From a virus: a stretch of 39,294 bases of DNA. Location of the stretch: the UHGV virus genome UHGV-0210057; one strand, written 5' to 3'. The position numbers and the translations under genes are program-made. Every line of letters begins with the position of its first letter. Position 1 is the stretch's first letter. Shown here piece after piece: positions 1 to 30,893 of this stretch. Under the pieces are notes generated by a model. That model made no database searches, had not been told where the DNA came from, and saw nothing but the letters and a program-made list of their open reading frames with translations.

Positions 1-12
1 ATTTCCATTTCA

Positions 13-25
13 CGCTCTTTAACAA
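13..25 (+). promoter_or_regulatory. BoxA-like antitermination element in the nutR position (downstream of cro across the window wrap)
   Basis: CGCTCTTTAACAA matches rrn BoxA (TGCTCTTTAACAA) at 12/13 and the lambda nut BoxA core CGCTCTT; no BoxB-like GC hairpin follows before the ATG at 70. Confidence 0.4.
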
Positions 26-69
26 TAAGCAATCAACTTAACAGTCAATTCAAACTAAAGGAGTCAATT

Positions 70-609
70 ATGCAACCACTTACATACCAACAGACTAGCG
101 GATTTAGCCCGACTGCGGTGATAAATCGTTCTCAAATAAAACAGGTGCCAGGCCACGAAAAAATCCGTGATGCCGTTCGCGCCTGGTCGGCTGCAGATAA
201 TCAGGATGTTGTTGCCGCACTCATTGTGAATGAGTATCGGGAGCAGGGCGGCGGCACCATCGATTTCCCTGATGATGTCAGCCGTGCACGCCAGAAGCTG
301 TTCCGCTTCCTCGATAACAAATTCGATTCTGAAAAATACCGAAATAACGTGCGTGAACTGACCCCGGCAATTCTGGCGGTACTACCGCTGGAATATCGCG
401 GCCACCTGGTTGAGCAGGATAGCTTCATGGCTCGGCTGGCTGAAATGGAAAAGGAACTCTGTGAGGCAAAGCAGGCGGTCATTCTCAACGCACCACGCCA
501 CCAGAAACTGAAGGAGATGAGTGAAGGCATTGTGTCGATGTTTCGAGTGGACCCGGATCTGGCTGGTCCATTGATGGCGATGGTCACCACCATGCTGGGG
601 GCAATATGA
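70..609 (+). CDS. Hypothetical early protein in the cII position, possibly YdaT-family
   Basis: 179-aa ORF with AAGGAG RBS 7 nt upstream; sits between cro (window end) and O; family assignment is from memory only. Confidence 0.5.
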   Translation: MQPLTYQQTSGFSPTAVINRSQIKQVPGHEKIRDAVRAWSAADNQDVVAALIVNEYREQGGGTIDFPDDVSRARQKLFRFLDNKFDSEKYRNNVRELTPAILAVLPLEYRGHLVEQDSFMARLAEMEKELCEAKQAVILNAPRHQKLKEMSEGIVSMFRVDPDLAGPLMAMVTTMLGAI

Positions 610-695
610 CAGGTTCAAAAATGGCGAAAGTCGGTCTGCGGGAACAGAACCGACTTTCAGGTGCAAATCGTAACACACTCATTGCGGGAGGAATT

Positions 696-1625
696 ATGGC
701 AAACACTGCTGAGATATTCAATTTTCCAGTGCCGGATGCGGCACAAAAGGAGCGGCGCGTGGCAGATCTCGATGATGGTTATACGCGCATTGCAAATGAG
801 TTGCTGGAAGCTGTGATGCTGGCCGGATTAACACAGCACCAGCTTCTGGTCTTCCTGGCTGTCATGCGCAAAACATATGGCTTTAATAAAAAACTGGATT
901 GGGTGAGCAACGAGCAACTTTCCGAGTTGACCGGGATATTGCCGCACAAGTGTTCTGCTGCAAAAAGTGTTCTGGTAAAGCGTGGGATTTTTATTCAGAG
1001 TGGGCGGAATATCGGCATTAATAATGTGGTCAGTGAATGGTCAACATTACCCGAATCAGGTAAGAAAAATAAAGTTTACCTGAAAGAGGTAAATTTACCT
1101 GAATCAGGTAAGAAAAGTTTACCCAAATCAGGTAAAGGCGTTTACCCGAATCAGGTAAACACAAAAGACAAACTAACAAAAGACAATATAAAACCTTTTT
1201 CGTCCGAGAATTCTGGCGAATCCTCTGACCAGCCAGAAAACGACTTTCCTGTGGAGAAACTGGATGCTGCAATTCAGAGCGGCAGCAAGTGGGGGACAGC
1301 AGAAGACCTGACCGCCGCAGAGTGGATGTTTGACATGGTGAAGACTATCGCGCCATCAGCCAGAAAACCGAATTTTGCAGGGTGGGCTAACGATATCCGC
1401 CTGATGCGTGAACGTGACGGACGTAACCACCGCGACATGTGCGTGCTGTTCCGCTGGGCATGCCAGGACAACTTCTGGTCTGGTAACGTGCTGAGCCCGG
1501 CCAAACTTCGCGATAAGTGGACCCAGCTCGAAATCAACCGTAACAAGCAACAGGCTGGCGTGACAGTCAGCAAACCAAAACTCGACCTGACAAACATTGA
1601 CTGGATTTACGGGGTGGATCTATGA
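696..1625 (+). CDS. O: Lambda O-like replication initiator
   Basis: From MANTAEIFNF the protein aligns with lambda O N-terminus (VADLDDGY..RKTYG..SEW); GGGAGG RBS before ATG at 696; iterons embedded in the linker; stop overlaps P start. Confidence 0.9.
   Translation: MANTAEIFNFPVPDAAQKERRVADLDDGYTRIANELLEAVMLAGLTQHQLLVFLAVMRKTYGFNKKLDWVSNEQLSELTGILPHKCSAAKSVLVKRGIFIQSGRNIGINNVVSEWSTLPESGKKNKVYLKEVNLPESGKKSLPKSGKGVYPNQVNTKDKLTKDNIKPFSSENSGESSDQPENDFPVEKLDAAIQSGSKWGTAEDLTAAEWMFDMVKTIAPSARKPNFAGWANDIRLMRERDGRNHRDMCVLFRWACQDNFWSGNVLSPAKLRDKWTQLEINRNKQQAGVTVSKPKLDLTNIDWIYGVDL
1047..1159. repeat. Origin iterons (ori-lambda-like) inside the O gene
   Basis: Five 17-19 bp repeats of TTTACC(C/T)GAATCAGGTAA(A/G), each an internal palindrome (TTACC..GGTAA), at about 1047-1063, 1075-1093, 1094-1112, 1118-1136, 1141-1159, followed by an AT-rich stretch; they encode the repeated LPESGKK motif. 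Confidence 0.8.
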
Positions 1626-2323
1626 AAAACATCGCCGTACAGATGGTTAACTTTGACCGTGAGCAGATGCGCCGGATCGCCAACAACATGCCGGAACATT
1701 ATGACGAAAAGCCGCAGGTACAGCAGGTAGCGCAGATCATCAACGGTGTGTTCAGCCAGTTGCTGGCAACTTTCCCGGCGAGCCTGGCTAACCGTGACCA
1801 GAACGAACTGAACGAAATTCGCCGCCAGTGGGTTCTGGCTTTCCGGGAAAACGGGATCACCACAATGGAACAGGTTAACGCAGGAATGCGCGTAGCCCGT
1901 CGGCAGAATCGACCATTCCTGCCATCACCCGGGCAGTTTGTCGCCTGGTGCCGGGAAGAAGCATCCGTTAACGCCGGGCTGCCAAACGTCAGCGAGTTGG
2001 TTGATATGGTTTACGAGTATTGCCGGAAGCGTGGCCTGTATCCGGATGCAGAGTCTTATCCGTGGAAATCGAACGCGCATTACTGGTTGGTTACCAACTT
2101 GTACCAGAACATGCGGGCCAATGCGCTGACTGACGCGGAATTACGGCGCAAGGCTGCCGATGAACTGACCTGTATGACAGCGCGAATTAACCGTGGTGAG
2201 ACGATACCTGAACCAGTAAAACAACTTCCTGTTATGGGCGGTAGACCTCTAAATCGTGCACAGGCTCTGGCGAAGATCGCAGAAATCAAAGCTAAGTTTG
2301 GGCTGAAAGGAGCAAGGGTATGA
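1622..2323 (+). CDS. P: Lambda P-like replication protein (DnaB helicase loader)
   Basis: 233 aa, near-identical along its length to lambda P as recalled (MKNIA.QMVNFDREQMRRIANNMPE...); ATGA overlap with O stop. Confidence 0.95.
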   Translation: MKNIAVQMVNFDREQMRRIANNMPEHYDEKPQVQQVAQIINGVFSQLLATFPASLANRDQNELNEIRRQWVLAFRENGITTMEQVNAGMRVARRQNRPFLPSPGQFVAWCREEASVNAGLPNVSELVDMVYEYCRKRGLYPDAESYPWKSNAHYWLVTNLYQNMRANALTDAELRRKAADELTCMTARINRGETIPEPVKQLPVMGGRPLNRAQALAKIAEIKAKFGLKGARV

Positions 2324-2622
2324 CGGGCAAAGAGGCAATTATTCATTACCTGGGGACTCATAAGAACTTCTGTGCGCAGGACGTTGCCGTGGTAACAGGC
2401 GCAACCGTAACCAGCATAAATCAGGCTGCGGCTAAAATGGCACGGGCAGGTCTTCTGGTTATCGAAGGTAAGGTCTGGCGAACGGTGTATTACCGGTTTG
2501 CTACTAGGGAAGAACGGGAAGGAAAGATGAGCACGAACCTGATTTTTAAGGAGTGTCGCCAGAGTGCCGCGATGAAACGGGTATTGAGGGTATATAAAAG
2601 AACATCAATGGGTACACAATGA
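2320..2622 (+). CDS. ren: Ren-like protein
   Basis: 100 aa beginning MTGKEAIIHYLGTH, matching lambda Ren as recalled; directly follows P with overlap. Confidence 0.85.
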   Translation: MTGKEAIIHYLGTHKNFCAQDVAVVTGATVTSINQAAAKMARAGLLVIEGKVWRTVYYRFATREEREGKMSTNLIFKECRQSAAMKRVLRVYKRTSMGTQ

Positions 2623-2689
2623 TGAAACAGATGAGTTGAGTTCAAACTGTAGTACAATTCTCTCCAGTTTGAACAGGAAAGAATATGCT

Positions 2690-3022
2690 ATGAATCCTTA
2701 TATTTATCTTGGTGGTGCAATACTTGCAGAGGTCATTGGTACAACCTTAATGAAGTTTTCAGAAGGTTTTACACGGTTATGGCCATCTGTTGGTACAATT
2801 ATTTGTTATTGTGCATCATTCTGGTTATTAGCTCAGACGCTGGCTTATATTCCTACAGGGATTGCTTATGCTATCTGGTCAGGAGTCGGTATTGTCCTGA
2901 TTAGCTTACTATCATGGGGATTTTTCGGCCAACGGCTGGACCTGCCAGCTATTATAGGCATGATGTTGATTTGTGCCGGTGTGTTGGTTATTAATTTATT
3001 TTCACGAAGCACACCACATTAA
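2690..3022 (+). CDS. emrE: SMR-family multidrug efflux transporter EmrE
   Basis: 110 aa from MNPYIYLGGAILAEVIGTTLMKFSEGF, four predicted TM helices; same position as emrE in the DLP12 prophage; AT-rich relative to neighbours. Confidence 0.85.
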   Translation: MNPYIYLGGAILAEVIGTTLMKFSEGFTRLWPSVGTIICYCASFWLLAQTLAYIPTGIAYAIWSGVGIVLISLLSWGFFGQRLDLPAIIGMMLICAGVLVINLFSRSTPH

Positions 3023-3055
3023 AAATAATTTCTTTTGAATCGAGTGAAATAGGTT

Positions 3056-3082
3056 AGCCCGCATAAGTGCGGGCTGCTTTTT
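3056..3082. terminator. Rho-independent terminator after emrE (bidirectional, shared with the convergent esterase gene)
   Basis: AGCCCGCA-TAAG-TGCGGGCT hairpin followed by GCTTTTT; the T-run overlaps the esterase stop codon. Confidence 0.6.
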
Positions 3083-4124
3083 ACAGGTCAGCGTTTGTTT
3101 TTTGTTGTTGGGTAGCGGTTTTTATGGGGGTTCCCAGTTTTTTAGTAAACCACTCAACAACTCTGTTTATAATAATTGGCTGATACCATGTATTATCGCC
3201 ATGCTCAGCCCCTTCTACCAGAACGTACTCAGCGTTATCGCCGTTCTTCTTCAACATCCTGAATAGTTTGGCGCTTTGCTCAGGTGAAACCAGAGTGTCT
3301 TTGCTACCATGCATAATAAGAAATGGGGGTTTTACTCCTTTCATATGTCCGATTGGACTGGCGTTTAGCGCTTTTTCTTTTGACGCTGTTATGGGGGCTC
3401 CCGCAAAACTTCTGAATGCAGGGCCATTGATCATTAAGGCTTCGGTTACGGCAGGAGATCGATGAACCTCCTGCACAGATTCAGGGAACCCCTCGCCAAT
3501 ATTCAACAAGTCAGAAATCCCATAAAGTGTGGCAACTGCCTGAACATCTGCTGATTGCTGAAGAAAGTCACCTTTATCAAAGGTTTTGTCACCATTTGTA
3601 GTTCCCATCATCTGGGCAAGCCATCCACCGGCAGAGTCACCCAGAACTCCGATTCTTTGAGGATCAATCCCATAATCGCTGGCATGTTCTCTCAAGTAAC
3701 GTATTGCAGCTTTCCCATCCTCAACTGGTGCTGGAAATGTATCAGGAATTGTTCTGTATTCTACAGCGGCCACAACAAAACCAGCTTCAGCCAGAGCCAT
3801 TCTCATTTCAATAAATTTGTCATGTTCAGAAGACATGAATCCGCCGCCGGGATAATAAATAATGGCTGGTTTTAAATCATTTGTTCGTGGGACAAGAACT
3901 GACATGTGAAGCTGTCTGACAGAACGAGTTCCTTTTATCTGGGAATAAACAACATCACCAATGAGATCGACCTGGTTTCTGGTCGGTGAAACACTAATGA
4001 TATCTGCACCCGGGGTGTAACCAGGAAGATTAGTCTGGACAGGTGTTGCACAACTCCCGACCGACATGGCCATTGACATACCATACAATAGTGTTGCAGA
4101 TGATAATATCTTGTTAATTTTCAT
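3081..4124 (-). CDS. Secreted or lipoprotein alpha/beta-hydrolase (esterase/lipase-like)
   Basis: 347 aa; N-terminal signal peptide with possible lipobox (MSMAMSVGSC); GDSAGG nucleophile motif and HGSKD; opposite strand to flanking phage genes with its own terminator (moron organisation). Confidence 0.75.
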   Translation of the reverse strand: MKINKILSSATLLYGMSMAMSVGSCATPVQTNLPGYTPGADIISVSPTRNQVDLIGDVVYSQIKGTRSVRQLHMSVLVPRTNDLKPAIIYYPGGGFMSSEHDKFIEMRMALAEAGFVVAAVEYRTIPDTFPAPVEDGKAAIRYLREHASDYGIDPQRIGVLGDSAGGWLAQMMGTTNGDKTFDKGDFLQQSADVQAVATLYGISDLLNIGEGFPESVQEVHRSPAVTEALMINGPAFRSFAGAPITASKEKALNASPIGHMKGVKPPFLIMHGSKDTLVSPEQSAKLFRMLKKNGDNAEYVLVEGAEHGDNTWYQPIIINRVVEWFTKKLGTPIKTATQQQKTNADL

Positions 4125-4571
4125 GTTTTACATGCCTTGACTTATCGGATGAAATTCTCTTACTGAATTTAACGGCAGTTTAATAGCCGTACAACTCGTG
4201 GTAGCTAGGGAAATATCCCAGTCGTGGTTAAGGTTGTACTTGACGGCTATTATTTCAACAATGCTTAAAGTGAGAGCTTAAGGTTATGCGTATGTTTTAC
4301 AGTCCGAGTAGATTCTGACCAATAGCTTCTTTGTATGATTCTGTCAGAAATAAATCTTGGCTTGCATGAAGTTTGAGACCTTATCTTGTTTGATTATGAA
4401 TAATCAATTCGCCATAATTGTATCACCGGAGCCTGAACAACTTCGGTGACTTCTGCGCTAAACGGGGACGTTTATGCGCACACACAATCCAAACTCTCTT
4501 CTCCCTTCACAGATGCAGAAATGCACCTGCGTTTTTTTGCATCCAGCGTCTGACCTCTGTGGAGGTGAAGC

Positions 4572-5027
4572 GTGAACCTACCACAAGATGGCATCAAACT
4601 GCATCGCGGTAACTTCACCGCTATCGGTCAGCAGATCCAGCCTTATCTGGAGGACGGCAAATGCTTTCGCATGGTGCTTAAACCGTGGCGCGAGAGACGC
4701 AGTCTTTCCCAGAATGCACTTAGCCACATGTGGTACAGCGAAATCAGTGAATACCTCATAAGCAGGGGGAAATCGTTCGCTACTGCAGCATGGGTAAAAG
4801 ATGCTCTCAAACACACATACCTCGGTTATGAAACCAAAGACCTGGTTGATGTCGTAACCGGTGAAATCACCACTATTCAGTCGTTACGCCATACCTCCGA
4901 TCTTGATACCGGAGAGATGTATGTCTTCCTGTGTAAGGTTGAAGCCTGGGCGATGAATATTGGCTGCCACCTGACTATTCCGCCGAGCTGCGAGTTCCAG
5001 CTGCTGCGCGACAAGCAGGAGGCGTAA
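4572..5027 (+). CDS. ybcN: NinB-family recombination protein (YbcN-like)
   Basis: 151 aa, GTG start with GGAGG RBS; [15 protein letters not shown]... and RSLSQN motif match DLP12 YbcN / lambda NinB as recalled. Confidence 0.8.
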
Positions 5028-5197
5028 TGGCTACACCGATTATTCGTGTCATGAACGGGCACATTTACAGAGTACCAAATCGTCGTAAGCGTAAACCTGA
5101 GCTGAAGCCTTCCGAAATACCAACACTGCTCGGATATACCGCCAGCCTGGTTGATAAAAAATGGTTGCGACTGGCAGCAAGGAGGAATCATGGCTGA
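5027..5197 (+). CDS. ninE: NinE-like protein
   Basis: 56-aa ORF (below the ORF-track cutoff) [32 protein letters not shown]..., translated by hand; TAATG overlap with ybcN stop. Confidence 0.7.
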   Translation: MATPIIRVMNGHIYRVPNRRKRKPELKPSEIPTLLGYTASLVDKKWLRLAARRNHG

Positions 5198-5480
5198 TTT
5201 GAGAAAAGCAGCGCGTGGTCGGGAATGCCAGGTAAGAATCCCTGGCGTATGTAATGGCAACCCTGAAACGTCTGTACTGGCACATATCCGGCTGGCTGGA
5301 TTGTGCGGCACCGGTATTAAACCGCCAGACCTTATTGCCACCATTGCCTGTTCTGCCTGTCACGACGAAATCGACCGCCGCACGCATTTTGTCGATGCTG
5401 AGTACGCAAAAGAATGCGCGCTGGAAGGTATGGCGAGAACGCAGGTTATCTGGCTGAAAGAGGGGGTAATCAAGGCGTGA
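5190..5480 (+). CDS. ybcO: YbcO-like (DUF1364) putative nuclease
   Basis: 96 aa from [23 protein letters not shown]... with Cys-rich motif; ATGGCTGA overlap with ninE stop. Confidence 0.75.
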
Positions 5481-5839
5481 ATACTTACCACATCACACTA
5501 CCCTGGCCGCCGAGCAATAACCGCTACTACAGGCATAATCGCGGGCGCACGCACATCAGCGCAGAAGGGCAGGCATACCGTGATAACGTCGCCCGAATCA
5601 TTAAAGGCTCAATGCTGGATATCGGTCTGGCTATGCCTGTGAAAATCCGCATTGAGTGCCACATGCCGGATCGCCGTCGCCGTGACCTGGATAATCTGCA
5701 AAAAGCCGCTTTTGACGCACTCACTAAAGCAGGTTTCTGGCTGGATGATGAGCTGGTCGTTGATTACCGCGTTGTGAAGATGCCTGTTACCAAAGGTGGG
5801 AAGCTGGAACTGACCACTACTGAACTGGGAGATGAATGA
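5477..5839 (+). CDS. rusA: RusA Holliday-junction resolvase
   Basis: 120 aa from a GTG start ([26 protein letters not shown]...), near-identical to E. coli RusA as recalled; GTGA overlap with ybcO stop. Confidence 0.85.
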
Positions 5840-5934
5840 TGTTTGAGTCTTATATGGCAGAACGTCTTCGCCGCCGCTGGGTGCGCCTGCGCTTATATCG
5901 TTTTATTGATTTTTGCTGGCAATTGGCGTGCTAG
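5836..5934 (+). CDS. Small YlcG-like ORF
   Basis: 32-aa [35 protein letters not shown] overlapping the rusA stop, in the DLP12 ylcG position; too short to be certain. Confidence 0.4.
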
Positions 5935-5957
5935 CCTGATTTTTGTGGGGAAAGTTG

Positions 5958-6341
5958 ATGCGTGATATTCAGATGGTTCTTGAGCGTTGGGGGGCATGGG
6001 CGGCTAATAACCACGAGGATGTAACCTGGTCATCCATTGCTGCCGGTTTTAAGGGATTAATTCCTTCAAAAGTAAAGTCTCGCCCACAATGCTGTGATGA
6101 TGACGCGATGATTGTTTGTGGATGTATGGCTCGCCTGAAAAAGAACAATAGCTATTTGCATGATTTACTAGTGGATTATTATGTCGGGGGTATGACATTT
6201 ATGTCACTGGCAAGTAAGCATTGTTGCTCTGATGGTTATATCGGGAAAAAGTTACAGAAGGCTGAGGGAATAATTGAAGGGATGTTAATGGCATTAGATA
6301 TACGGTTAGAGATGGATATCGTTGTTACTAAGTCTAATTAA
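5958..6341 (+). CDS. quuD: Late-gene antiterminator Q (phage 82/21 QuuD-like)
   Basis: 127 aa from [22 protein letters not shown]... with Cys-rich zinc-binding region; located after the nin genes and before the lysis genes. Confidence 0.8.
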
Positions 6342-6366
6342 TACGCTAATTATTTACTAAGTGTTA

Positions 6367-6393
6367 TTAAAAAAGGGGCGTAGAAACGCCCCC
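6367..6393 (-). terminator. Intrinsic terminator for the convergent porin transcript
   Basis: GGGGCG-TAGAAA-CGCCCC hairpin; on the minus strand it is followed by a TTTTTT run. Confidence 0.5.
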
Positions 6394-6482
6394 AAAAATA
6401 AAGGGTAATATATAACAGAAGGTTTATATAGTCAGAAGCAAGGTAGTGCTTCTAAAGGAAGTGGCTTGAGGGAGCCACTTAT

Positions 6483-6520
6483 ATGTTGGGGAGGCAAAGC
6501 CTCCCGCAACATATCTTTTT
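6483..6520 (+). terminator. Intrinsic terminator downstream of Q (tR'-like position)
   Basis: ATGTTGGGGAGGC-AAA-GCCTCCC(G)CAACAT extended hairpin followed by ATCTTTTT, about 140-180 nt after the Q stop, the spacing expected for a PR'-to-tR' leader. Confidence 0.5.
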
Positions 6521-6530
6521 CGTAACCAGA

Positions 6531-7628
6531 TTAGAACTGGTAAACCAGTCCTACGGCAACGATGTCGTCAGTGCTTACACCAAGTGCTTTAGTGAAGTCG
6601 TTTTTGTCAAGCAGGTTGATCTTGTAATCAACGAAAGTAGACATGTTTTTGTTGAAGTAATAAGTTGCACCTACATCAACATATTTGACTAAGTCCTGAT
6701 CGCCCCATACTCCAAGATCCTTACCTTTAGATTGCAGGTAAGCAACGGACGGACGCAGACCGAAATCGAACTGATATTGTGCAACAGCTTCGAAGTTTTG
6801 AGCTTTATTAGCAACGAAGTGATCAGCAAATACAGTCATATTCTGGGTTTCAGAATAGGTAGTGGCCAGGTAAATGTTGTTAGCGTCATATTTCAGACCT
6901 GCGGCCCAAATTTCTGCATTTTTACCGGAAGCAAATACTTCAGGAAGAACTTTGCCTGCATTGACTTGAGTGTCGGTACGATCAGATTTCGCATAAGTCG
7001 CACCAATGCCGAATCCTTCGTATTCATAGGTAGCAGAGAAACCGAATCCATCACCGTTACCTTCGGTGTAGTTATCGAAATCGCTACGATCGTTTTTACC
7101 TTGGTACTGAGCAGCAAAGTTCAGACCATCAACCAGACCAAAGAAGTCGTTGTTACGGTAAGTTGCAACACCAGTTGCACGTTGAGTCATGAACACGTCG
7201 GTTTGAGTCCAAGTATCACCACCGAATTCTGGCAGGACGTCAGTCCACGCACCGATGTCGTATGCTACACCGTAGTTACGACCGTAATCGATGGAACCGT
7301 AGTCACCGAATTTCAGGCCTGCAAATGCAAGACGGGTTTTGTCTTTGGCGGAACCTTGAGATTCAGCGCGGTTGCCTTTGAATTCATATTCCCACTGACC
7401 GAAACCAGTCAGTTGATCGTTGATTTGGGTTTCACCTTTGAAGCCCAGACGAACATAAGTAGTATCACCATCATCTGCATCGTTAGAGGAAAAGTAGTGC
7501 TTGGCATTAACTTTCCCGTACAGATCCAGCTTGTTACTGTCTTTATTATAAATTTCAGCTGCCTGAGCAGACATCGCCATCAGTACTGATGCAGCTACAG
7601 CAGAAATTGCCACTGTTAATTTTTTCAT
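6531..7628 (-). CDS. nmpC: OmpC-family general porin (NmpC/Lc-like), apparently intact
   Basis: 365 aa from [23 protein letters not shown] signal peptide; AEIYNKD..LDLYGK start, porin motifs and C-terminal ...VGLVYQF; same position and orientation as nmpC in DLP12. Confidence 0.9.
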
Positions 7629-7706
7629 CGTGAGCCCTTTTTTTGAACTATTATTAAAAAATGATGTCACTGCGCGATAAATATTCATCTAATCAATATG
7701 ATTATT

Positions 7707-8753
7707 TCAAGATGTTGTATGGGTCCACCACATATTGCAATTTTTATTCTCTTTTAAAATATATTCCACGGGCGTCATTAGTGCGAGCGCCTTGTGGGGT
7801 CTTTTGCTGTTATACAGCACCAGATATTCCGCCAGCTTCTGGTTAAATAGCGCCAGATCTTCAAAGAGTAAAATCTCATTAAATTCAATAAACTGCTCTC
7901 TTAACGTCCGGTTAAAACGTTCACAGATAGCGTTCATTTTTGGCGTGTAGGGATAGGTCCAGAGGTGTTTGATAGCGGCTTCCTGCAGCGTTTTGTCGAA
8001 GTTTCCCAGGAACTCTTTTCCGTTATCTGTGATTATCTGGCTGATACCGACCGGGAACAACCGGGCTGCGCGGCTGAAGAAGTGATTGACGATATCACTG
8101 TTGAGTGACGGCACAGCCAGCGCCAGCGCGTAATTGCTGCATTCGTCGATCATGGTGATGACATAGCGACGCAGTTCGCCCATTCTGAGCTCAATGGCGT
8201 CCATCCCAATGAGCTCACCTGTCTTTACCGGGCGGTAGTGCTTTGGCCTGCGGGGTTTGGCAGACCGCTTTTTGACAAGCAGTGCCTTCCCCCGCGATCC
8301 CAGACGCACAGGTATCATCCGCATTTTATCATGTGCGGCAGCGATCATTCTGCCGATGGTGGAAACACTCGGACAGGCCAGATAGCGCTGTTCGCACCAG
8401 GGCTTCAGGCGAACAAAAATCTGCTCTTTACCGAGGTTCGGCAGCTCTGTCCTGAGGCGTCGAATCTCTTTCAGCACATCGGGATGCCAGTGTTTTTTTC
8501 GTCGCACCAGAGGTGCCTTACTGTGCGGGATTAGCCCCTCAGGTCCTTCCTTGTTCAGTAACTGACGCCACCAGTAAAGCGTGCGGCAGGACACGCCAAA
8601 GGCTTCAGAAGCTGCAGAAATACCGTGTTTATCCCAGAAGTGCAGAGCCTTCATTCTCATTGTTGCTATATCAGCCATCACTGAAAGCCTCAACGCATAA
8701 TCGGCCGTTTGGTAGTACTTAGGATAGCCAACCATCAGATGCTGCATTTGCAT
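7707..8753 (-). CDS. IS transposase (single ORF with N-terminal HTH and rve/DDE integrase core; IS481-family-like)
   Basis: 348 aa; rve-type catalytic region (ITDNGKEF...YTPKMNAICERFNRTLREQ...YNSKRPHKAL); AAGGGGAG RBS before the start. Confidence 0.8.
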   Translation of the reverse strand: MQMQHLMVGYPKYYQTADYALRLSVMADIATMRMKALHFWDKHGISAASEAFGVSCRTLYWWRQLLNKEGPEGLIPHSKAPLVRRKKHWHPDVLKEIRRLRTELPNLGKEQIFVRLKPWCEQRYLACPSVSTIGRMIAAAHDKMRMIPVRLGSRGKALLVKKRSAKPRRPKHYRPVKTGELIGMDAIELRMGELRRYVITMIDECSNYALALAVPSLNSDIVNHFFSRAARLFPVGISQIITDNGKEFLGNFDKTLQEAAIKHLWTYPYTPKMNAICERFNRTLREQFIEFNEILLFEDLALFNQKLAEYLVLYNSKRPHKALALMTPVEYILKENKNCNMWWTHTTS

Positions 8754-8815
8754 AGTGCAATCTCCCCTTACTTATCCGGAGGCAATTGCAATATCTCTGT
8801 GAACTTACACAGATG
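7711..8815 (-). mobile_element. Insertion sequence (IS481-family-like), boundaries approximate
   Basis: Imperfect terminal inverted repeats with identical 11-bp core ATATTGCAATT at 7732-7742 and its reverse complement at 8784-8794; element about 1.1 kb with one transposase ORF; exact ends and target-site duplication not resolved. Confidence 0.55.
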
Positions 8816-9316
8816 TAAGTTTTAGTTTCTCATTTAATTTGTGAAGTAGATCTCTATTTTTATCTGAACTTTTTCTATCGAAACCTATTTATGGCTCTTA
8901 TTTGAACAAAAATAAACCTATTAGCTAATTTATATTAATGGCTGTTATTTATGGTGGTTCTATAATTCGGAAGTTTAATTTAAATCAACTAAAAATAACG
9001 TCGGAAATTATTTATTGGTTATTTGTTGAGGTTTTCTTATGTATTTGTGGTGGTGTTTTGAACACTCGGTAGCATTCTCATAAATATCATTCAGTGGTTT
9101 ACGTACGTAAAAAATTGGTTATGCTGTTAAGAGTGGTTACTTCGTCACACAGCTTAAACCCGCCGTCGAGCTGGTTTTTCCATTTTTTGAGTCTCGATAT
9201 TAGCTGATAACTCAATACCTGAGTTATTCATTGACTCCGAGTCTGTTACGTTTCTGCTTTTTTGCGATACGTTGTATTCCCTCAATTTACACCCGCTTTG
9301 TCTGCGAGGTGGGGTT

Positions 9317-29714: not shown

Positions 29715-30893
29715 TTACTGAAGTTTTCTTCTTGTGTATGTTAGTACATTAAATTTTTTAAACTTACTACACGGTGTCTCAATATATCTAAAACATAGCA
29801 ATGATATAAGCGTGATAAACCCAGAGAGGATTATAATAATAGCTGAAAATACAAGGCTGTTAATTTGATTAACATAGCTAACCGGAAGTATTATTTTAAA
29901 TGTTATAAAAAGTATAATGCCATGTAGAAGATACATGCTATATGTAGCTTCTCCAAAAACTTGACAGGTTTTTATCTTAAGAACTCCAAAAATATCGCAT
30001 CCATTTGATATCAGAATAAATGCAATACCACAGAGTGATATTGTTATTGGATTGTAAGGATTTGGAATTAAAAAACAAGTTACACATAAGATAACGATAA
30101 CGAATAAGCTTGATAATATTTTATTGAAAGGCAAGCTGTTAGGCAGTTTGTGATTTATTTTTGCTGCCAGATAACCAAAAACAAATGATAAAATATGTAT
30201 TTTTAATGATGGATAGAAAATAAAAGCAAATACACTCGCAATACTAAGAATTGTGTAAGTATTAAATTTGTCTCTTCTCATTATAAAAGCCATAAAAGGA
30301 AGAGATAAATAAAAAAACCATTCATAAACAAGTGACCACGGAACTCCGGCCATGATAAGCGACGTCTTGTGAAGACCGTTAACATCAGGCATTCCAAGGA
30401 AAGAAAAAGGAACCCATCTCGCCATAGATATTATGAGATTGGCAATTCCTGTGTTAATTTTCCAATCAGAAACATAGAACACAATTATGAATAGTAGAGA
30501 TAACGAAACCAGATACATAGGTGTTAGTCTCATTATTCTTGACCAAAATAAATCTTCCCAATTTACTGATTTATTCGAAATCAATTTCCCGAAGAACAAG
30601 AAGCCTGTAATCATAAAAAAGAAAATAACAGCTATTTTCCCAATATTAGTATAAAATAACGAATCAGGATCAGACCAAACTCCAGTATGTATGTATTGCC
30701 ACCAGAAACTGGAATGATGAAGGAAAACCATTAAAGCAAGAAATCCTCTAAGCCCATCAATTGATTCACTCCTTCCTTTGATAGGTGATAAGTGTGTTTC
30801 TGTGACAAATATTCTTGCAACCGAAAGTGAAGTAATCACCGATAAAGAAGCAATTAAAAAGCCATTAAATCCGTCAAACATAGAAATCTCCAT
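29715..30893 (-). CDS. Acyltransferase-3 family membrane protein (O-antigen acetyltransferase-like, Oac/OafA type)
   Basis: 392 aa, multiple TM helices, N-terminal motif R..S.DGLRGFLALMVFLHH typical of acyltransferase-3; strongly AT-rich; located between tailspike and integrase as in Sf6. Confidence 0.85.
   Translation of the reverse strand: MEISMFDGFNGFLIASLSVITSLSVARIFVTETHLSPIKGRSESIDGLRGFLALMVFLHHSSFWWQYIHTGVWSDPDSLFYTNIGKIAVIFFFMITGFLFFGKLISNKSVNWEDLFWSRIMRLTPMYLVSLSLLFIIVFYVSDWKINTGIANLIISMARWVPFSFLGMPDVNGLHKTSLIMAGVPWSLVYEWFFYLSLPFMAFIMRRDKFNTYTILSIASVFAFIFYPSLKIHILSFVFGYLAAKINHKLPNSLPFNKILSSLFVIVILCVTCFLIPNPYNPITISLCGIAFILISNGCDIFGVLKIKTCQVFGEATYSMYLLHGIILFITFKIILPVSYVNQINSLVFSAIIIILSGFITLISLLCFRYIETPCSKFKKFNVLTYTRRKLQ

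Follow-up and report, generated by a model that had tools for sequence, protein, structure and literature searches.

A moron encoding a predicted lipid-anchored, probably feruloyl-type esterase in the nin region of a temperate Escherichia coli phage

The viral genome UHGV-0210057, which was analysed over its whole length of 39,294 nucleotides (hereafter 'the window'), contains, between emrE and the ylcH-ybcN genes of its early region, an open reading frame encoding 347 amino acids on the minus strand (3081-4124), the product of which is a predicted alpha/beta-hydrolase of the BD-FAE / Abhydrolase_3 type and is referred to below as 'the esterase'. A hairpin rich in guanine and cytosine (GC-rich; 3055-3076) lies beyond the 3' end of the gene, an AT-rich region of 264 base pairs (4125-4388) lies ahead of its start codon, and the early genes on either side (O, P, ren, emrE, ylcH and ybcN) are all on the plus strand, an opposition that an earlier interpretation made from the letters alone (the 'sequence-only reading') had correctly described. 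On balance, the gene is a moron, located within the nin region of a temperate E. coli phage genome, that probably specifies an exported, lipid-anchored serine esterase of feruloyl type.

Family, catalytic residues and export signals

The protein was placed in the BD-FAE family by its match to profile PF20434 (E-value 1.5e-44; a score of 152.5 bits where the cut-off is 26.8, over profile positions 7-214 of 215), which was overlapped by weaker matches to Abhydrolase_3 and Peptidase_S9, and it falls within the PHROGs family phrog_3341, 'esterase' (3.7e-129). No equivalog model of NCBIfam was matched at its cut-off, the matches to models for acetyl esterase, acetylxylan esterase and pectin acetylesterase being weak and all far under their cut-offs. 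Membership of the hormone-sensitive-lipase family (the GDSAG subfamily of Abhydrolase_3) is not indicated either, as the corresponding NCBIfam models scored 32-55 bits against cut-offs of 380-430; the GDSAG motif is present in the esterase, but its oxyanion motif reads PGGG and not the HGGG of that family.

The GDSAGG nucleophile elbow that had been noted earlier occupies residues 162-167 by direct reading (3624-3641, minus strand) and includes Ser164 (codon 3633-3635), which is invariant in 35 homologues. Two further residues encoded on the same strand and invariant in the family, Asp276 (codon 3297-3299) and His308 (codon 3201-3203), would provide the catalytic acid and the catalytic base, respectively, and invariance across 34-35 homologues extends from these three positions to the PGGGF oxyanion motif and to Glu228. 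In phmmer and Smith-Waterman alignments, Ser164, Asp276 and His308 fall on Ser128, Asp237 and His269 of BD-FAE, the triad that was established crystallographically for that enzyme (PMC8165983), and Glu228 aligns (Smith-Waterman) with Glu197, a residue suggested by the BD-FAE authors to be important for feruloyl esterase activity (PMC8165983). Since the three residues coincide with the crystallographic triad, the catalytic apparatus, the absence of which would have told against an esterase, is predicted to be in place.

An AlphaFold2 model of the protein, built on 34 homologues (mean predicted local distance difference test score 80.8; predicted template-modelling score 0.79; residues 1-28 and 340-347 disordered), predicts an alpha/beta-hydrolase fold. 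The best solved relatives in a sequence search of the PDB were Lip_vut4 (6nkf; 9e-37), a Bacteroides GH43-CE protein (6mly) and BD-FAE (6tkx and 6xyc), and a Foldseek search with the model again placed 6nkf first (E-value 1e-26), followed by 6tkx and 6xyc (E-value ~1e-19) and 6mly. Profile match, predicted fold and mapped triad all agree with the esterase identity that the sequence-only reading had proposed, and within the alpha/beta-hydrolases the protein appears to belong to the BD-FAE / CE10-like branch, as a serine carboxylesterase with an intact triad. Its C-terminal tail (residues ~331-347; 3084-3134) is of low complexity, occurs family-wide and ends in the conserved motif [DN]-A-[NSD]-L, the last Leu of which is shared by at least 90% of sequences; this tail is disordered in the model and missing from a 328-residue Dickeya paralogue, and could be a sorting or autoregulatory tail.

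A putative signal peptide is encoded at 4050-4124 (minus strand) and ends in a lipobox, V22-G23-S24-C25 (codons 4050-4061), with Ala at position +2. The N-terminus, which reads MKINKILSSATLLYGMSMAMSVGS up to the lipobox Cys, fits the PROSITE PS51257 rule for lipoproteins, which calls for a Cys at position 15-35, an uncharged stretch of six residues preceding it, and a Lys or Arg within the first seven residues; Cys25, K2, K5 and a hydrophobic core are all present. Two database sequences (P0001, which is a cluster representative, and P0004) have Tyr in place of the lipobox Cys (codon 4050-4052), a change that corresponds to a single G-to-A substitution and that would convert the lipoprotein to a soluble periplasmic protein. 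When 37-mers carrying either TGT or TAT at this codon were used to probe all 5,426 complete E. coli genomes, TGT was found in every genome that carries the gene (680/680) and TAT in none (0/5,426), and a common Cys/Tyr polymorphism at the lipobox was rejected on those grounds; the Tyr25 of P0001 is therefore a rare variant or an error. The signal peptide and possible lipobox that had been claimed are thus borne out by both the pattern match and the fixed cysteine codon.

The lipobox is also found in the closest relatives of the phage protein (P0002, P0003 and P0005, which have [AT]GC), in a plasmid-borne copy, and in a diverged copy from Escherichia sp. MOD1-EC7003 (L017), while the signal peptides of relatives at 72% identity or below are mostly Cys-free, a distribution that suggests that lipid anchoring was acquired within the lineage that gave rise to the phage gene. 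Under the '+2 rule', Ala at that position predicts Lol-dependent sorting to the outer membrane, and the esterase is predicted to be lipidated at Cys25 and sorted to that membrane.

Carriage of the cassette by prophages

The esterase gene was found in 680 of the 5,426 complete E. coli genomes (12.5%), always in the nin region of a DLP12-type prophage; the region corresponding to 2600-5100 was covered over at least 80% of its length in 668 of the 5,426, and ylcH, ybcN and ninE always followed the gene. Eight sequenced phages encode the protein with 98.8% identity (4A7, Lambda_4C10, D2, 1W, 3W, Perceval and PhiR47_2 are those named), and in phage 4A7 (genus Bievrevirus) the genes are ordered ren-emrE-ylcJ-ybcK-esterase-ybcN...Q-porin-holin. 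In the DLP12 prophage of E. coli K-12, ybcL-ybcM stands at the esterase site, with homology to the window ending at 3051 on the left and resuming at 4389 on the right, such that the cassette is present or replaced at one site between conserved neighbours, as is typical of morons. The GC content of the cassette is 0.39-0.47, compared with 0.50-0.55 in the replication and nin genes. The claim that the gene is phage cargo is therefore upheld by its carriage in one-eighth of the genomes, its restriction to prophage nin regions and its presence in eight sequenced phages: it is a phage moron, cargo that is non-essential for phage growth, and not a conserved chromosomal gene with constant flanks.

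The ratio of nonsynonymous to synonymous substitution rates (dN/dS) is 0.10 against the copy in the commensal strain SE15 (4 nonsynonymous and 12 synonymous changes), 0.13 against the 96%-identical L017 copy, and 0.04-0.10 against the relatives linked to a phenolic acid decarboxylase gene that are described below. At values of approximately 0.1, the gene is under purifying selection and is thus being maintained. The gene itself is already known, as a RefSeq 'alpha/beta hydrolase' or 'esterase', by annotation in phage records and as PHROG 3341, and the exact protein has been deposited both as 'alpha/beta hydrolase fold domain-containing protein [Escherichia coli]' and as 'Esterase/lipase [Caudoviricetes sp.]'.

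The sequence-only reading had further stated that the cassette replaces ybcK-ybcM, which is correct for the window; in most carriers (SE15 and 4A7 among them), ylcJ-ybcK is kept and only ybcL-ybcM is replaced. The direct junction of emrE with the esterase cassette in the window, without ylcJ-ybcK, is common to 2 E. coli genomes (H1 and H2) among the matches listed, and to L017 (5045-5110). The 3' flank of emrE (3002-3051, plus strand) occurs twice in SE15-type prophages, after emrE and again after ybcK; in SE15 itself (L002), the two copies of approximately 50 base pairs (6916-6965 and ~9001-9040, ~90% alike) bracket ylcJ-ybcK. This doubled flank, together with the direct junction in L017, therefore suggests that the ylcJ-ybcK module, which encodes a serine recombinase, may be a later insertion rather than a deletion in the window. 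The L017 sequence (1-9041) contains the esterase, emrE and a few other open reading frames between genes for a class-III aminotransferase and a pectinesterase-family protein, flanks that resemble the bioA / ybhC region around the lambda attachment site, and it may represent a decayed prophage from which emrE and the esterase were not lost.

Flanking sequences and the surrounding phage genome

The hairpin at 3055-3076 lies 5 nucleotides past the esterase stop codon, between that gene and the convergent emrE. It was called as an intrinsic terminator on the plus strand (9 pairs, followed by the tail CTTTTTAC), whereas on the esterase strand, where the tail is ACCTATTT and the T-tract is weak, the scan made no terminator call. 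It folds with energies of -17.5 and -14.8 kcal/mol (z -2.6 and -3.2). The stem is unchanged in L017 (in which differences are limited to the loop), and in SE15 the hairpin is found with the esterase, ybcK lying between it and emrE; the emrE of K-12 has a different hairpin. A terminator of its own, another property expected of a moron, is thereby present in the cassette, and the hairpin is a canonical terminator for emrE and a weak-tailed one for the esterase. The bidirectional terminator that had been proposed is thus plausible, and weak on the esterase strand.

On the other side of the gene, a structured, non-coding upstream region of 450 base pairs had been described. Approximately 264 base pairs of this (4125-4388, minus strand) are specific to the cassette: the sequence is AT-rich (GC content ~0.39-0.41, versus 0.50-0.55 in the backbone), always travels with the esterase gene, and was detected (identity of at least 95%) in those 680 genomes and never elsewhere, with L017 homology ending near 4366. 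The remainder, from 4389, is DLP12 backbone that is common to K-12 and includes ylcH and a plus-strand promoter-like site. The cassette-specific region may supply a weak promoter for the esterase, for which the best candidate on the minus strand in our own scan (4249-4276) consists of CTCTCA, a 16-nucleotide spacer and the extended -10 element TG-n-AATAAT (TGaAATAAT). This candidate is contained in a run (~4246-4276) that is identical between the window and L017, and positions 4253-4281 contain 2 differences in 29 nucleotides.

Within the same region lies an imperfect inverted repeat, TAATAGCCG-TACAAC ... GTTGTA-cttga-CGGCTATTA (4181-4252), with 9 + 6 paired positions and a 5-nucleotide bulge, which encloses two copies of TCGTGGT (4196-4202 and 4222-4228) and the sequence GGGAAATATCCC (4208-4219). 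These enclosed elements had also been pointed out: the direct repeats are present, yet a 7-nucleotide repeat is by our estimate near chance expectation and both copies are altered in L017, and the palindrome is a near-palindrome that matches at 10 of 12 positions only. The inverted repeat as a whole is unlikely to have arisen by chance (none of 100 shuffled versions of the window contained the 9+9 arm pattern), and with a plus-strand 96-nucleotide fold of z = -2.3, and with the serine recombinase gene ybcK adjoining the cassette in most carriers, it might be read as a functional RNA (a leader, small RNA or attenuator) or as the end of a recombination or mobile element by which the cassette is controlled or mobilised.

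That explanation is nevertheless very improbable. Approximately 80 further copies from viral and metagenome contigs were compared, along with the diverged Escherichia sp. copy, and among the resulting eight distinct variants there were five uncompensated, pair-breaking substitutions in the outer arms and no pair (0) that had changed on both sides. The repeat differs from L017 at 12 of 72 positions (Jukes-Cantor distance 0.19, compared with a dS of 0.13 for the gene and an upstream average of 0.15), so that its divergence is at or above the synonymous rate, the gene-proximal arm (4181-4195) being unchanged. The esterase-sense 176-nucleotide leader fold has z = -0.5, and Rfam returned no relevant match for the element at an E-value of 1 or better; a MicC-like match at 2980-3090, which scored 25 bits (cut-off 90; E-value 0.9), lies in the terminator region and was set aside. 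A repeated mobile element was rejected, as neither E. coli genomes nor plasmids contained a copy of the upstream element without the esterase beside it, and the repeat lies 137-208 nucleotides inside the cassette, away from its ends; matches with other spacings in viral contigs were unrelated sequences, in a number that is about that estimated for chance. The structure that had been proposed thus exists as an inverted repeat, and lacks comparative support as a structure: it does not appear to be a conserved RNA structure, and could at most serve as a binding site for a protein, overlapping the start region, or be a relic.

To the left of the cassette, O (606-1625), P (1622-2323), ren (2320-2622) and emrE (2690-3022) form a DLP12-like lambdoid early-right module on the plus strand. 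Just right of the cassette boundary, a sigma-70-like site (4390-4418, plus strand; TTGATT-17-CATAAT) has both of its hexamers conserved in K-12 DLP12 upstream of ylcH-ybcN. The 33-codon ylcH (4474-4575, plus strand, by RefSeq annotation) contains a terminator-like hairpin (4511-4534, plus strand) and is succeeded by ybcN (4572-5027, plus strand), ninE, ybcO, rusA, ylcG and quuD.

The window looks like the complete, circularly permuted genome of a P22-like temperate podophage of the Sf6/HK620/Gally type: it encodes terminase, portal, coat and ejection proteins, a tailspike, an integrase and a cI-like repressor, and its late region is ~96% identical to those of phages Gally, N7, Sf6 and HK620. 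It is a mosaic, in which a P22-like genome is joined to a DLP12/lambda-like early-right region; the esterase cassette is also present in lambda-like siphophages such as 4A7. An intact gene for an OmpC/NmpC-type porin (6531-7688, minus strand), unlike the IS5-disrupted nmpC of K-12, lies downstream of the gene for a Q-like antiterminator. Between the porin gene and the lysis cassette, an insertion sequence transposase gene (7707-8753, minus strand; rve/rve_3 integrase core and helix-turn-helix domain) has been inserted, and the porin-to-holin spacer is ~1.7 kb, versus 574 base pairs in an otherwise similar prophage of NZ_OY754409.1; this insertion could affect late transcription. Finally, an Acyl_transf_3 acyltransferase of 392 residues is encoded between the tailspike and integrase genes (29715-30893, minus strand), the position of the O-antigen acetylase gene oac in Sf6, and is likely a second lysogenic-conversion gene of the same phage.

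Relatives, substrate and comparison with known systems

Homologues of the esterase number 2,383. Outside the E. coli cluster, most of the named homologues in the 60-72% identity range belong to plant-associated Enterobacterales (Dickeya, Pectobacterium, Pantoea, Kosakonia, Kluyvera and Klebsiella), with Rhizobium and Variovorax also represented. The closest relatives, at 72-80% identity, adjoin a phenolic acid decarboxylase (pad) gene in two different arrangements. In the first, the decarboxylase gene lies 12-34 nucleotides upstream and is co-directional (P0002, 80%; P0004, 75%; P0005, 74%; and the copy on plasmid pSCU-105-1), and is preceded by a divergent LysR gene in P0004, P0005 and pSCU-105-1, where the contig reaches far enough; in the second, P0010 (72%) is convergent to the decarboxylase gene on a Tn3-type element. 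The adjacency of the two genes in two arrangements argues for a functional linkage between them, and an esterase that releases hydroxycinnamates, combined with a decarboxylase of the released acids, would constitute a coherent two-step pathway. Two paralogues in Dickeya aquatica, three genes apart, are both annotated 'Ferulate esterase', and with these the phage protein shares 66% (SLM61953.1) and 42% (SLM61950.1) identity; the genome paper of D. aquatica lists FaeD and FaeT.

From the decarboxylase adjacency and the Dickeya relatives together, we infer with moderate confidence that the phage protein is a hydroxycinnamoyl esterase (feruloyl, caffeoyl or p-coumaroyl; that is, of the ferulate/chlorogenate type). 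Its gene descends from a lineage that is pad-adjacent in plasmids, transposons and other enterobacterial contigs. The similarity of the phage upstream region to pad loci does not continue past 4134, which is 10 nucleotides before the ATG; the idea that part of the decarboxylase gene persists ahead of the phage copy was rejected, as blastn at word size 7 found similarity only from 4134 downward. A scan of the genome collection returned nine loci, none of them among the pad-linked relatives. A further close relative, P0003 (80%; context L015), adjoins genes for a serine-protease autotransporter (Peptidase_S6) and a PerC-family regulator, in a setting that is pathogenicity-island or plasmid-like and not a pad operon.

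If this reading is correct, the esterase would be exported by Sec, lipidated at Cys25 and delivered by Lol to the outer membrane, where it would hydrolyse those hydroxycinnamoyl esters whose small size allows them into the periplasm (chlorogenic acid, and feruloylated or p-coumaroylated oligosaccharides) and release free phenolic acids, probably cleaving some acetyl esters as well. In a lysogen, the gene would be transcribed leftward from its own weak promoter in the 264-base-pair AT-rich region, and its transcripts would end at the hairpin that it shares with emrE; in the lytic cycle, rightward early transcription would traverse the gene in antisense orientation.

Several observations weigh against this account. 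Lipidation and outer-membrane sorting are predicted by sequence rules only; the candidate promoter matches at 3 of 6 positions of its -35 element, and a promoter prediction tool found no sigma-70 promoter on the esterase strand even at a relaxed threshold. The close relatives P0003 and P0012 are not pad-linked, and the best solved relative, 6nkf, is annotated as a lipase and is 33% identical in structural alignment. We know of no enzyme assay for the phage esterase or for relatives more than 66% identical to it. As the phage copy no longer has the decarboxylase and LysR regulator of the pad loci beside it, its role may have shifted. The BD-FAE authors, moreover, state that substrate is not confidently predictable from family or fold (PMC8165983).

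The protein could instead be a broad short-chain carboxyl or acetyl esterase, the substrates of which in E. coli are not hydroxycinnamates (acetylated oligosaccharides, for example, or xenobiotic esters in the periplasm), with the pad linkage belonging to the biology of its relatives. BD-FAE is bifunctional, acting on acetyl xylan and on feruloyl esters (PMC8165983), which together with the weak, sub-cut-off NCBIfam matches to acetyl, acetylxylan and pectin acetylesterase models, and the separation of the phage copy from pad and LysR, lends this alternative some weight. It is nonetheless unlikely, given the decarboxylase adjacency in two independent arrangements among the closest relatives, and the invariance of Glu228, the counterpart of BD-FAE Glu197.

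Roles in glycan deacetylation, lipid modification or virulence, as the sequence-only reading had put forward, found no specific evidence, the neighbourhoods of relatives pointing to plant hydroxycinnamate esters. In such a role, the esterase would deacylate or deacetylate O-antigen, enterobacterial common antigen, lipopolysaccharide or phospholipid, and in this way alter phage receptors, serum resistance or virulence by lysogenic conversion of the envelope. The prediction of an envelope lipoprotein, the porin gene and Oac-like acyltransferase gene in the same phage (6531-7688 and 29715-30893), and the lipase label of the closest solved structure would all suit such a function, which is improbable for other reasons: no relative was linked to glycan or lipopolysaccharide genes in the contexts examined, and characterised members of the family act on plant esters. 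The esterase is also found in lambda-like phages with different late regions, and no linkage to the acyltransferase is therefore seen. PADLOC gave no match for the esterase, which speaks against the envelope role and on the basis of which an anti-phage defence role was rejected as well.

For the hydroxycinnamoyl esterase that we favour, a moron encoding an exported enzyme is a familiar kind of thing; the decarboxylase-linked origin, a lipoprotein state that is fixed in E. coli, and the possible chlorogenate link were not found in the literature searched, and a literature search on the esterase protein and on prophage feruloyl esterases yielded no paper. If the activity is right, approximately one in eight sequenced E. 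coli (680/5,426, including the commensal SE15) would carry an enzyme, delivered by phages, for the release of ferulic, caffeic or p-coumaric acid from plant esters in the diet; a concrete, testable gene would then be available for a gut-microbiome biotransformation, and phages would be seen to move a plant-polymer or polyphenol-processing function, rather than a toxin or defence system. If the activity differs, the gene is one more uncharacterised esterase moron. To our knowledge, no gene has been assigned to the hydrolysis of chlorogenic acid by E. coli. Three E. coli strains are reported to hydrolyse chlorogenic acid (Couteau et al. 2001, as cited in PMC10340781). We suggest, tentatively and as a doubtful possibility, that the phage lipoprotein is the strain-variable cinnamoyl esterase behind chlorogenic acid hydrolysis by some human-gut E. 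coli. Were this true, a dietary-polyphenol-processing trait, captured from a plasmid-borne decarboxylase-esterase operon, would have been spread among E. coli by temperate phages.

Among solved enzymes, the esterase shares with BD-FAE (6TKX/6XYC; PF20434), which derives from a Bacteroidetes polysaccharide utilization locus, its family, its fold, and the aligned triad and Glu197. The two differ in that they are only ~25% identical and that BD-FAE is encoded in a locus for xylan utilization, while the esterase, a phage-borne (predicted) lipoprotein, has an N-terminal extension of ~50 residues and a conserved C-terminal tail. The closest solved match is Lip_vut4 (6NKF), a lipase from a goat-rumen metagenome, by both sequence (9e-37) and fold (TM-score 0.73/0.84), although it is unlike the esterase in its metagenomic source and its structural-alignment identity of 33%.

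The feruloyl esterases of Dickeya, FaeD and FaeT, belong to CE10, and faeR, an adjacent gene for a LysR-type regulator, mediates their induction by ferulate. Both enzymes were reportedly described in 2011 by Hassan and Hugouvieux-Cotte-Pattat (J Bacteriol 193:963). FaeD is secreted by the Out type II system. Motifs are common to the phage esterase and both D. aquatica 'Ferulate esterase' proteins, whereas the Dickeya proteins are chromosomally encoded near LysR genes and their signal peptides contain no Cys; no faeR-like regulator gene adjoins the phage esterase, the neighbours of which are emrE and ylcH/ybcN, and none is contained in the cassette.

The closest lineage (72-80%) is represented by the pad-esterase operon of enterobacterial plasmids such as the E. 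coli IncF plasmid pSCU-105-1 (NZ_CP051739.1), the co-directional members of which have the same type of lipobox. In that operon, unlike in the phage, the esterase stands beside a phenolic acid decarboxylase and the operon members are under a divergent LysR gene, whereas the phage cassette has kept only 10 nucleotides of upstream sequence, followed by its unrelated region of 264 base pairs. With lambdoid morons, and with ybcL-ybcM of K-12 in particular, the cassette shares the slot between emrE(-ybcK) and ylcH-ybcN, the possession of its own terminator and a lower GC content, while it differs from ybcL-ybcM in being on the opposite strand and in encoding an unrelated protein.

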